Positions 26,306-27,485 of a stretch of DNA of 48,176 nt are shown here, in pieces. The stretch is from a bacterium. GTDB lineage: Bacteria; Patescibacteriota; Minisyncoccia; Phycocordibacterales; Phycocordibacteraceae. Each line of letters starts with the position of its first letter. Positions within the stretch are counted from its first letter, which is position 1. Both the position numbers and the translations under genes were made by a program. Below the pieces are notes generated by a model, which saw nothing but the letters and a program-made list of their open reading frames with translations, searched no databases and was not told the origin of the DNA. The stretch covers positions 1 to 48,176 of the forward strand of contig OMJE01000021.1 of the NCBI GenBank assembly GCA_900299275.1. Reading direction: 5' to 3'.

Positions 26306-26331
26306 GCGACCGCCAAGAACAAGTTTGAAAC

Positions 26332-26358
26332 AAAACCGCCCCGTAAGGGGCGGTTTTT
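26332..26358 (+). terminator. Strong intrinsic terminator immediately after rpsJ
   Basis: aaaaccgcccc-gtaa-ggggcggtttt is an 11-bp stem with a GNRA-like loop, followed by a T-run. Confidence 0.8.
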
Positions 26359-26362
26359 GCTT

Positions 26363-26373
26363 GCTGGTATACT
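26363..26373 (+). promoter_or_regulatory. Extended -10-like element GCTGGTATACT, 6 nt upstream of ATG 26380
   Basis: It is the same 11-mer as at 15569..15579. A start site about 7 nt downstream would fall on the ATG, implying a leaderless mRNA. Confidence 0.35.
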
Positions 26374-26379
26374 GTGCCT

Positions 26380-27363
26380 ATGAGTCACGAGCAGCTCGCT
26401 AAGAGCGTAAAGCTAGAAAAGCAGAGCGACCTGCAAGTAGCAGAGAAGGTGTTCAAAGATATTCATATGACCGGGCGTGCTATGCGCATTGATGAATCGC
26501 CAGAAGACTATCAACGTGAGCGAGAGACCTCATGGCCACACGCATGGGAACAAATTAAAAAAGAAAAAGGATGGATTCCATCTGAAACAGTATCGGCCAC
26601 AGGCGCCATGAATGCAGCTCCTCAAGAATATGGGGCAGAAAAAGCGGATCAACTGTTTGCGCATGTGCCACAAGAAAGACGAGAGCTTGCCAAGTACTTG
26701 GCGGGCTTGTCCCAAGATGAGTATGCCGAATGGCTCACAAAGCACATGCTCGAAGAAACTGATTTGTACAATCAGCTGACGGCGCGCCCGGAATACAGGT
26801 CACTGCTCGGGCAGGAGCGGGCGCTCGTTTTTGTTGCGGTCAAAGACACTCCTGAATACGCGCAATACCGACAACGCGTGGAAGAACTTGATCAGTTCTG
26901 GCTTCTAAAAAAGAAGCAAGCAGGCAGCCAAAATATCCGCACGGTGGGCAGCGGTGAAAAATGGAGCAATTTTGAAATTAATAAGGGCGCACAGAGTGCG
27001 CACTCCGAGAGTAAAGGGTATTTGACGTTTAAGAAGCCGGCCGAGGCTCTTACGCCGGAGAATGTGTCTTCGTTCATGCGAAGACTGCAAGAAGCCGGAT
27101 ACAATGGACAGGTCAAAGTGCCGACGATGCCCAGCGCACTGTTTTTCCGCTTTGATAATATTGTTTTCCATGGCGACACGGATGCTGACGTGGATAAGGC
27201 GCTGCAGGTTGCCGAGCAGCTTTTTGGTGGACAACTGACTCAAACTCAGAAAGGCACTGATGGTATAAACGCCAACGGCTCACATACGAGTCACTCCGAC
27301 CTGCTCGCCGAGAAAGTCAAAAAAACTCGGGCAGAGTCTAATATAGAGATGAAAAACCCGTAG
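26380..27363 (+). CDS. Hypothetical soluble protein, 327 aa, inserted between rpsJ and rplC
   Basis: A long clean ORF. The track starts it at GTG 26374, but I prefer ATG 26380. It has no TM segment, no signal peptide and no motif I recognise, and there is no SD upstream. Confidence 0.75.
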   Translation: MSHEQLAKSVKLEKQSDLQVAEKVFKDIHMTGRAMRIDESPEDYQRERETSWPHAWEQIKKEKGWIPSETVSATGAMNAAPQEYGAEKADQLFAHVPQERRELAKYLAGLSQDEYAEWLTKHMLEETDLYNQLTARPEYRSLLGQERALVFVAVKDTPEYAQYRQRVEELDQFWLLKKKQAGSQNIRTVGSGEKWSNFEINKGAQSAHSESKGYLTFKKPAEALTPENVSSFMRRLQEAGYNGQVKVPTMPSALFFRFDNIVFHGDTDADVDKALQVAEQLFGGQLTQTQKGTDGINANGSHTSHSDLLAEKVKKTRAESNIEMKNP

Positions 27364-27375
27364 ACGCTTTTCTAG

Positions 27376-27404
27376 TTGCATATTCCAGTGAGGTGGGGTA
27401 GAGT
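27376..27404 (+). promoter_or_regulatory. rplC-operon promoter TTGCAT-N17-TAGAGT
   Basis: The -35 is at 27376..27381 and the -10 at 27399..27404. Confidence 0.5.
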
Positions 27405-27441
27405 GCTGCTAACGCTATGTACCCGCGGGTACCTATGGCAG

Positions 27442-27477
27442 AACGCGCGAAGCGTCTGCTATCGCGCGTTTTGCTTT
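27442..27477 (+). promoter_or_regulatory. Terminator-like leader hairpin just upstream of rplC (candidate attenuator)
   Basis: aacgcgcga-N11-tcgcgcgtt is followed by ttgcttt and ends 9 nt before the rplC ATG. It is preceded by the palindrome gtacccgcgggtac (27419..27432). Confidence 0.4.
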
Positions 27478-27485
27478 AAAAAACA

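Follow-up and report, generated by a model that had tools for sequence, protein, structure and literature searches.

The open reading frame (ORF) of 327 codons that separates the ribosomal protein (r-protein) genes rpsJ and rplC in the bacterial contig OMJE01000021.1 (48,176 nucleotides [nt], hereafter the window), here designated ORF327, is predicted from its modeled fold and from profile comparisons to contain a highly divergent member of the HopA1/LanY-OspF/SpvC lyase superfamily, outside every Pfam model. Phospho-Ser/Thr lyases are known from type III secretion system (T3SS) effectors that permanently disable eukaryotic mitogen-activated protein kinases, from the effector HopA1, and from the dehydratases of ribosomally synthesized and posttranslationally modified peptides. 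We read ORF327 as a solo, chromosomally fixed, phage-related lyase-like enzyme that sits in an inter-operon gap and probably has a phosphorylated protein as its target in a conflict, and we give this reading an even chance of being correct.

The lyase assignment concerns the C-terminal domain (residues 100 to 320; positions 26677 to 27339, on the + strand like all features of the rpsJ-rplC region given below), which consists of a helical subdomain and an alpha/beta core and was characterized with AlphaFold2, Foldseek, and hhalign. AlphaFold2 modeling on a 30-sequence alignment gave a predicted local distance difference test (pLDDT) value of 94.4 and a predicted template modeling (pTM) score of 0.89, and Foldseek comparison with the Protein Data Bank (PDB) returned lyase-fold entries at all ranks from 1 to 12 (probability, 0.91 to 1.00; query-normalized TM score, 0.32 to 0.46). 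The top entries were HopA1 (4rsx and 4rsw), LxmY of the lexapeptide dehydratase (9dk1-3_B), the lyase domains of ThurKC, SalKC, CuvL, and PneKC, and SpvC/VirA (3bo6), with the HopA1 and LxmY matches reaching a probability of 1.00 and TM scores of 0.42 to 0.46. The same lyase-fold result was obtained with an independent full-length model, in which an N-terminal hairpin and a disordered segment (residues 67 to 89) were also visible. A further link was provided by two proteins, P0145 and P0152, which share the N-terminal motif of ORF327 and in their C-terminal halves score 27.5 and 32.1 bits against the Pfam HopA1 model PF17914 (gathering cutoff, 22.7 bits). Comparison of the 30-member alignment with P0145/P0152 by hhalign yielded a probability of 84.8% and an E value of 6.6e-6 over 148 columns, pairing KGYLTF with RAYLTL, GQVKVP with FTAKAS, and RFDNIVFHG with RTDNTVLYI, and placing K246 of ORF327 on the K of FTAKAS. 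An earlier sequence-only reading of this DNA had recognized no motif in the protein; library searches indeed came back empty, but structure and profile comparison point to relatives with the lyase fold.

Upstream of this domain, the protein is composed of an N-terminal module (residues 16 to 66; positions 26425 to 26577) that forms a two-helix hairpin with the motif HMxGRAMRxDETPEEYxxERExSW (block-mean pLDDT of ~75 to 88 over residues 21 to 60) and an acidic, mostly disordered linker (residues 67 to 99; positions 26578 to 26676) with an isoelectric point (pI) of 4.4 and pLDDT values below 50 for residues 67 to 89. The N-module is tandemly duplicated in the homolog P0003 (residues 24 to 70 and 98 to 145), which fits an independently folding unit, and it is probably an adaptor. 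The whole protein has a length of 327 amino acids (aa), a mass of 37 kDa, and a pI of 5.9, and it is predicted to be soluble and cytoplasmic, without a transmembrane segment. Hence, the sequence-only description of an acidic, soluble protein holds for solubility, but the protein is only mildly acidic; the compact C-terminal alpha/beta domain of ~100 aa that had been proposed is replaced by a conserved domain of ~220 aa, and in place of the supposedly helical N-terminal two thirds, the N-terminal third forms a helical hairpin, with the disordered linker after it.

Conserved residues were read from the 30-sequence domain alignment (23 to 68% identity) and are given in ORF327 numbering. R140, K212, Y214, K246, D294, and S304 were invariant, and D259, N260, and H264 were near-invariant, with His in at least 90% of the sequences at the last position. 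Residues R187, K219, R229, and Y236 of CaoY correspond to K104, K136, R148, and Y158 of SpvC (PMC9486802), and R337, K371, R381, and Y388 of P0145 show the same spacing as in CaoY (+10 from K to R and +17 from K to Y). By this route, K212 is equivalent to CaoY R187 and SpvC K104 (proposed enolate-stabilizing residue, a Lys as in SpvC), K246 to CaoY K219 and SpvC K136 (proposed catalytic base), R257 to CaoY R229 and SpvC R148 (proposed phosphate contact, with conservation limited to the close clade), and H264 to CaoY Y236 and SpvC Y158 (proposed partner of the catalytic base, His for Tyr), and Y214 stands at the position of SpvC H106 (Tyr for His) with no CaoY equivalent. If the enzyme is active, K246 would take the alpha-proton from a phosphorylated Ser or Thr of a substrate protein or peptide, K212 would stabilize the resulting enolate, and R257 and H264, the latter replacing Tyr, would assist, so that phosphate would be eliminated irreversibly and a dehydro-amino acid left.

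With the HopA1/LanY group (PF17914; HopA1, LxmY, CaoY, and TvaD), ORF327 thus shares the best structural matches (4rsx, 4rsw, and 9dk1-3_B), the [KR]-x-Y-L-T-[LF] strand, the catalytic Lys strand, and the D-N motif, and an identical N-module heads PF17914-positive proteins. In contrast to this group, ORF327 and its 30 aligned relatives fail PF17914, Lys and His occupy the positions of CaoY R187 and Y236, no LanK kinase, precursor peptide, or T3SS context accompanies the gene, and the domain also occurs internally in giant phage proteins. In particular, when ORF327 was considered as part of a class V lanthipeptide or thioamitide system, no APH-like kinase domain was found in the ten upstream window ORFs scanned, and its neighbors were rpsJ and rplC. 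The similarity to OspF/SpvC comprises the alpha/beta fold (3bo6, 8sam, 9ugq, 8cav, and 8wgo among the top matches) and, as far as the transitive alignment shows, Lys at the equivalents of K104 and K136 in an equal strand order, whereas in that alignment, His106 is changed to Tyr and Tyr158 to His, the arginine-rich phosphate pocket is not evident in ORF327, and neither a secretion system nor a fused kinase or cyclase goes with it.

The distribution of the domain points to phages. An exhaustive HMMER search of 1.84 billion representatives recovered 154 cluster representatives (50% identity) at an E value of ≤1e-3, and the domain of residues ~100 to 320 recurs both in proteins of 300 to 450 aa and inside giant proteins of 1,000 to 6,300 aa. 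Among the HMMER matches and the translated ORFs of the fetched loci, 59 proteins were at least 1,000 aa long. Most of the giants scanned were devoid of any Pfam domain, four bore polyvalent signatures (LPD23, ART-PolyVal in two cases, and Kinase-PolyVal), and no common flanking domain was found among them. For instance, two Phage_tube_2 genes of an Oscillospiraceae metagenome-assembled genome are next to a giant ORF (at least 2,007 aa) that has an HD domain. Moreover, the domain occurs in ORFs of 1,262 to 4,029 aa on five IMG/VR contigs, and on two of these, a neighboring gene encodes a virion structural protein or a portal; no close relative of ORF327 itself was found in IMG/VR. These giants resemble the polyvalent proteins of phages and conjugative elements (Iyer et al. 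2017, PMC5512222), given that the domain is embedded in very large polypeptides, some with LPD23, ART-PolyVal, Kinase-PolyVal, or HD, and that some relatives are located within phage structural modules. ORF327 differs from polyvalent proteins in being solo and chromosomal with one enzymatic-type domain; it is its relatives, and not ORF327, that combine at least two effector domains in a single large phage or conjugative polypeptide. Since the closest relatives of the domain lie within giant, phage-encoded virion-module proteins, ORF327 is best taken as a solo copy of a phage-associated effector domain that became fixed in the chromosome. No mention of a HopA1- or lyase-type domain was found in PMC5512222, nor did literature searches turn up a description of a phage-encoded phosphothreonine lyase. 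HopA1-type proteins with the ORF327 N-module were, for their part, chromosomal and occurred in a FemAB/Mur ligase context and in a HAD/NUDIX/MazG context.

Several results weigh against the proposed lyase-like and phage-related nature of ORF327. The structural scores are modest (E value of ~1e-3; TM score, 0.43 to 0.46), and comparison of the domain alignment with an SpvC/OspF/Microbulbifer alignment by hhalign gave no similarity (probability, 0.7%). ORF327 had no match in Pfam (E ≤ 10), NCBIfam, or PHROGs, and PF17914 or a related family was detected in none of the 30 aligned domain copies at an E value of ≤1. The residue mapping is transitive and based on alignments and published numbering, and the Tyr158 and His106 equivalents are substituted and the Arg148 equivalent is variable family-wide, so ORF327 may, judging from these residues, have a different chemistry or be inactive. 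HopA1 itself is described only as an immune-suppressing effector, with no lyase assay reported (PMC9486802). Regarding the phage connection, a pairing of kinase and lyase in the giants was not borne out, a kinase region being present in only 1 of the 59; no kinase partner was found near ORF327, and tblastn with two domain copies as queries found nothing among cultured phages and plasmids. In addition, transfer may have proceeded in either direction, from phage to cell or from cell to phage.

Other searches were also negative. In PDB sequence searches, which covered ribosome structures, the domain profile produced only noise at E values of ≥0.25, and the N-module profile and the P0145/P0152 profile produced nothing; a fold search of BFVD gave no meaningful match. 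One of the nonsignificant PDB matches, the phage hub/tail protein 9cuy_X (E value of 0.25), covers profile positions 99 to 153 and spans the KGY[LV]T ... AGYNG..K motifs, a curious coincidence in view of the virion setting of the giant relatives. Repeat homolog searches with the domain and N-module profiles added almost nothing, for which we suspect word-index limits, and a scan of genome contigs found two distant loci only and a scan of metagenomes one, in collections that do not include the genome of the window. The exact ORF327 sequence had no protein record, and a lookup with the S12 of the window yielded close relatives on contigs of only ~1 kb.

Homologous loci indicated that ORF327 is a real gene under purifying selection rather than a strain-specific accident. 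A search of 5.8 billion proteins retrieved six close homologs with 46 to 64% identity, and four other metagenome contigs place the homolog beside rpsJ and/or rplC, contrary to the possibility, raised with the sequence-only reading, that homologs would occur only at unrelated loci; a match to a housekeeping family, raised likewise, was not found. Locus L004 (protein P0005) comprises the 3' end of rpsJ, the terminator, the ORF, the same promoter and leader as in the window, and the 5' end of rplC; L005 (P0004) comprises rpsJ (Pfam Ribosomal_S10), the terminator, and the ORF; L006 (P0002) comprises the rpsJ tail, the terminator, the ORF, a second terminator, the promoter, the leader, and the rplC start; and L017 to L019 (P0001) comprise the terminator, promoter, ORF, and an identical terminator. 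In the more distant organism of L001, whose EF-Tu, EF-G, and S10 are 78%, 70%, and 70% identical to those of the window, rpsJ-rplC is uninterrupted and the homolog (P0003, positions 6001 to 7239) is found between fusA and tuf, as part of a 7.2-kb block of ORFs without annotation. This block (L001 3706 to 10990) contains seven ORFs of 141, 610, 412 (P0003), 185, 414, 116, and 371 aa and looks like a variable island within the str operon of a relative; its 185-aa ORF has a weak Metallophos match, and, P0003 aside, its ORFs have homologs neither in the window nor among the giants.

Between homologs, the proportion of nonsynonymous differences (pN) was 0.17 to 0.34 in the N-module and the domain, versus a proportion of synonymous differences (pS) of 0.75 to 0.95 at saturated synonymous sites, while in the linker, pN was close to pS, as expected for nearly neutral evolution. 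ORF327 diverges far faster than its neighbors (pN of 0.33 versus 0.02 to 0.10), and its divergence does not track that of the flanks, with a pN of 0.33 in the comparison with L004, which is closely related, and of 0.32 in that with the distant L001. Its GC content (0.499) and GC content at third codon positions (GC3, 0.521) are below those of the r-protein genes, in line with the higher A/T content noted in the sequence-only reading, but ordinary for the genome, as the 39 genes of the window have a GC of 0.534 ± 0.033 and a GC3 of 0.566 ± 0.059. A foreign-DNA composition was therefore rejected, ORF327 lying within about 1 standard deviation of the window genes in both measures. No second copy or paralog of ORF327 was found in the window.

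The transcription signals around ORF327 explain how a gene can sit between rpsJ and rplC, which form one of the most conserved gene adjacencies known in bacteria. The two genes are 1,180 nt apart in the window, which bears out the distance of ~1.18 kb and the wedged position reported from the sequence alone. The upstream gene rpsJ (S10; positions 25931 to 26305; 88 to 98% aa identity to the S10 proteins of L005 [Pfam Ribosomal_S10] and L004) seems to end the tuf transcription unit; the gap between tuf and rpsJ is 7 nt (25924 to 25930) in the window and 33 nt in L001, and rpsJ appears to be a member of the str/tuf unit rather than the head of the S10 operon. An intrinsic terminator hairpin follows it (26332 to 26358; A-tract, CCGCCCC-GTAA-GGGGCGG at 26336 to 26353, T-run TTTTT) with a centroid fold of -19.9 kcal/mol, and an equivalent hairpin is present 3' of rpsJ in L004, L005, and L006 and 5' of the ORF in L017. 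The coding sequence itself extends from an ATG at 26380 to the stop codon at 27361 to 27363 (327 codons plus stop, 26380 to 27363), and an extended -10 element, TGGTATACT (26365 to 26373), is located 6 nt 5' of the ATG and predicts a leaderless mRNA. At all five loci compared (the window, L004, L005, L006, and L017), TGnTAnAnT occurs 6 to 10 nt before the first in-frame ATG and no Shine-Dalgarno sequence precedes the start codon; annotated starts were moved upstream on rereading two contigs, after which the N terminus of P0001 reads MSHEQ, as in the window protein. Judged by these signals, ORF327 appears to be transcribed separately, as a leaderless mRNA from its own extended -10 promoter.

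Downstream of ORF327, a promoter-like TTGCAT-N17-TAGAGT (27376 to 27404), conserved in the window, L004, and L006 with an invariant -10 hexamer and a -35 of TTGCAT or TTGCAA, would restart transcription for rplC (L3; 27486 to 28100; 85% aa identity to the 5' fragment in L004 and with an L001 counterpart carrying Pfam Ribosomal_L3), which heads the downstream r-protein unit. It is followed by a leader of ~80 nt (27405 to 27485; minimum free energy [MFE], -46.4 kcal/mol; z, -2.9) with hairpin 1 at 27419 to 27432 and hairpin 2 at 27437 to 27475, the second being terminator-like, ending ~10 nt before the rplC ATG, and followed by UUU and an A-run that reaches almost to this ATG. Promoter and leader together span 27376 to 27485 in the window, 1297 to 1408 in L004, and 1183 to 1300 in L006, and the leader is kept at the three loci with two compensatory pairs. 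A pattern scan flagged neither the rpsJ terminator nor a canonical sigma-70 promoter upstream of ORF327, and the rplC promoter scored 8/12 in the sigma-70 scan, under its threshold. We think that the terminator was missed because the A:U extension of the stem consumes the T run, and the promoters because they are noncanonical; the case for these signals therefore rests on their conservation across loci. That conservation, together with the hairpin energy, agrees with the sequence-only reading, which had proposed a strong terminator closing rpsJ, an extended -10 element giving an essentially leaderless ORF, and a fresh promoter with a structured leader restarting the operon at rplC.

The rpsJ-rplC adjacency is thus an operon boundary in the clade of the window, so a gene can occupy the gap with no transcript broken. 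The rplC leader is a candidate for an element of r-protein autoregulation or attenuation. In Escherichia coli, the S10 leader is controlled by L4 through attenuation, and the two leaders are alike in being structured and in having a terminator-like hairpin right before the first cistron of the L3-L4-L23-L2 block, but the window leader precedes rplC rather than rpsJ and matched no Rfam family at an E value of ≤10. In L001, without the insertion, the rpsJ-rplC spacer (12916 to 13119) is 204 nt long and highly structured (MFE, -82 kcal/mol; z, -5.5), and its sequence is unrelated to that of the window leader.

In two loci, direct repeats of the terminator bracket the ORF, namely, at 105 to 136 and 1154 to 1185 in L006 (32 nt, 94% identity) and at 1 to 30 and 1032 to 1061 in L017 (at least 30 nt, 100% identity), the latter at both contig ends. 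L004 has the downstream copy in degenerate form, and the window lacks it. Copies within one genome are more alike than orthologous hairpins between genomes, suggesting gene conversion or recombination through the hairpin, and the repeats could reflect gene conversion, hairpin-mediated insertion/excision, or a tandem arrangement. The L017 to L019 contigs end exactly in the terminator repeat, which looks like an assembly loop at k = 31.

We favor a role in conflict because the domain occurs mainly in phages, because the family is a rare one, and because the divergence is far above that of the neighbors and equal between close and distant hosts. The role is most likely in inter-genomic conflict (phage versus host or epibiont versus host) and not in core translation, and the site, with a terminator on one side and a promoter on the other, would most likely serve as a permissive landing pad. 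Of the two sequence-only proposals, a selfish or defense-type insertion comes closer, in view of the domain common to giant phage proteins, whereas the support for a ribosome-associated factor is only positional. The latter would be a translation-linked enzyme that acts on phosphorylated EF-Tu, EF-G, or an r-protein, or binds the ribosome via the N-hairpin, with its location reflecting coregulation. The occurrence of homologs within the str/S10 cluster at two junctions (rpsJ/rplC at four or five loci and fusA/tuf in L001), the persistence of this linkage while r-proteins fall to 70 to 78% identity, and a constitutive-looking extended -10 promoter speak for such an enzyme. Nevertheless, ORF327 belongs to no r-protein or translation factor family in Pfam, NCBIfam, or PDB sequence searches, the surroundings of HopA1-type relatives with the N-module are unrelated (FemAB/Mur ligase and HAD/NUDIX/MazG), ORF327, with a terminator and a promoter of its own, appears not to be cotranscribed with its neighbors, the family is rare (six close homologs in 5.8 billion proteins) and evolves much faster than the genes around it, and beta-elimination would destroy a target irreversibly rather than regulate it, all of which make a translation-linked function quite unlikely.

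A pseudo-enzyme whose lyase fold binds or sequesters a kinase or an immune protein would account for the substituted His106 and Tyr158 positions, for an Arg148 that is not conserved family-wide, and for the presence of HopA1 among the top structural matches, given that HopA1 targets EDS1 and interacts with kinases and that binding of this kind has been proposed for it (PMC9486802). However, the polar set R140, K212, Y214, K246, D259, N260, H264, D294, and S304 is invariant or near-invariant over the 30 sequences, as in an active site, and ORF327 keeps the two lysines on which catalysis by SpvC and CaoY depends most; we regard a pseudo-enzyme as unlikely. The terminator repeats around the ORF in L006 and L017, their decay in L004 and loss in the window, a divergence that does not follow the flanks, and the otherwise phage-borne domain would suit a selfish or recently mobile cassette, i.e., a promoter-ORF-terminator unit, possibly a phage toxin-like remnant, that inserts or recombines via the rpsJ terminator hairpin without benefit to the cell. 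Such a cassette is very unlikely, considering that the unit comes with no gene for a recombinase, a transposase, or another mobility function, that composition is native and purifying selection strong, that the same site is occupied in lineages with saturated synonymous sites, and that searches found no copies in cultured phages or plasmids, no close relative in IMG/VR, and no second copy in the window. A chance ORF or decaying pseudogene in an expanded spacer, in keeping with the lack of a database family match, has a negligible probability in light of the intact frame in six lineages, pN far below pS, the 154 homologous cluster representatives, the pLDDT of 94, and the conserved start codon and promoter. 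A bolder reading, rather improbable in our estimation, is that a phage-derived lyase was domesticated at the str/S10 junction by an ultrasmall, probably Patescibacteria lineage, where it would irreversibly erase phosphorylation, for instance, on translation factors or r-proteins that phage or host kinases target or, in epibiosis, on host-cell proteins, and that the giants use the domain as an ejected anti-host weapon.

These results point to a further branch of the superfamily without a Pfam model, with at least 154 clusters at 50% identity and the residue set K/Y/K/H in place of the canonical K/H/K/Y. The members that can be detected are mostly domains within giant phage proteins, in some cases encoded in virion structural modules; should these be active, irreversible removal of phosphate from proteins would be added to ADP-ribosylation and phosphorylation as a chemistry delivered into bacteria by phages. 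Should the domesticated-lyase reading be true, the giant phage proteins would be a previously unrecognized class of phage effectors, a slim prospect at present. Within the libraries searched, neither the branch and its residue set nor its prevalence in giant phage proteins or its fixation at an r-protein operon boundary seems to have been described before. Moreover, the order of terminator, promoter, and structured leader between rpsJ and rplC accounts for the interruption of a highly conserved adjacency, and the solo chromosomal copy, a soluble protein of 37 kDa, is directly assayable.

The remainder of the region follows a familiar order. Upstream, rpsL and rpsG are followed by fusA (22327 to 24474) and by tuf (24730 to 25923), the final large gene of the str unit, whose EF-Tu product shares 78% aa identity with that of an L001 gene carrying Pfam GTP_EFTU domains; downstream of rplC, rplD, rplW, rplB, and further genes continue on the + strand. 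The clade carrying ORF327 is a small group of uncultured bacteria, probably Patescibacteria. The S5 gene (35274 to 35873) is followed after 10 nt by the L15 gene (35884 to 36333), such that the L30 gene is not at its usual place; this is consistent with the Patescibacteria (candidate phyla radiation) without being diagnostic, and the many window ORFs with no Pfam match are likewise consistent with this affiliation and no proof of it. Directly upstream of rpsL, where rpoB and rpoC are often located, six successive + strand ORFs (13160 to 21261) encode proteins of 534, 261, 345, 581, 634, and 319 aa, and none of the five that were scanned has a Pfam domain. Near the start of the window, two tRNA genes on opposite strands (452 to 522, + strand; 644 to 715, - strand) adjoin the gene for the CCA-adding enzyme (791 to 2254).

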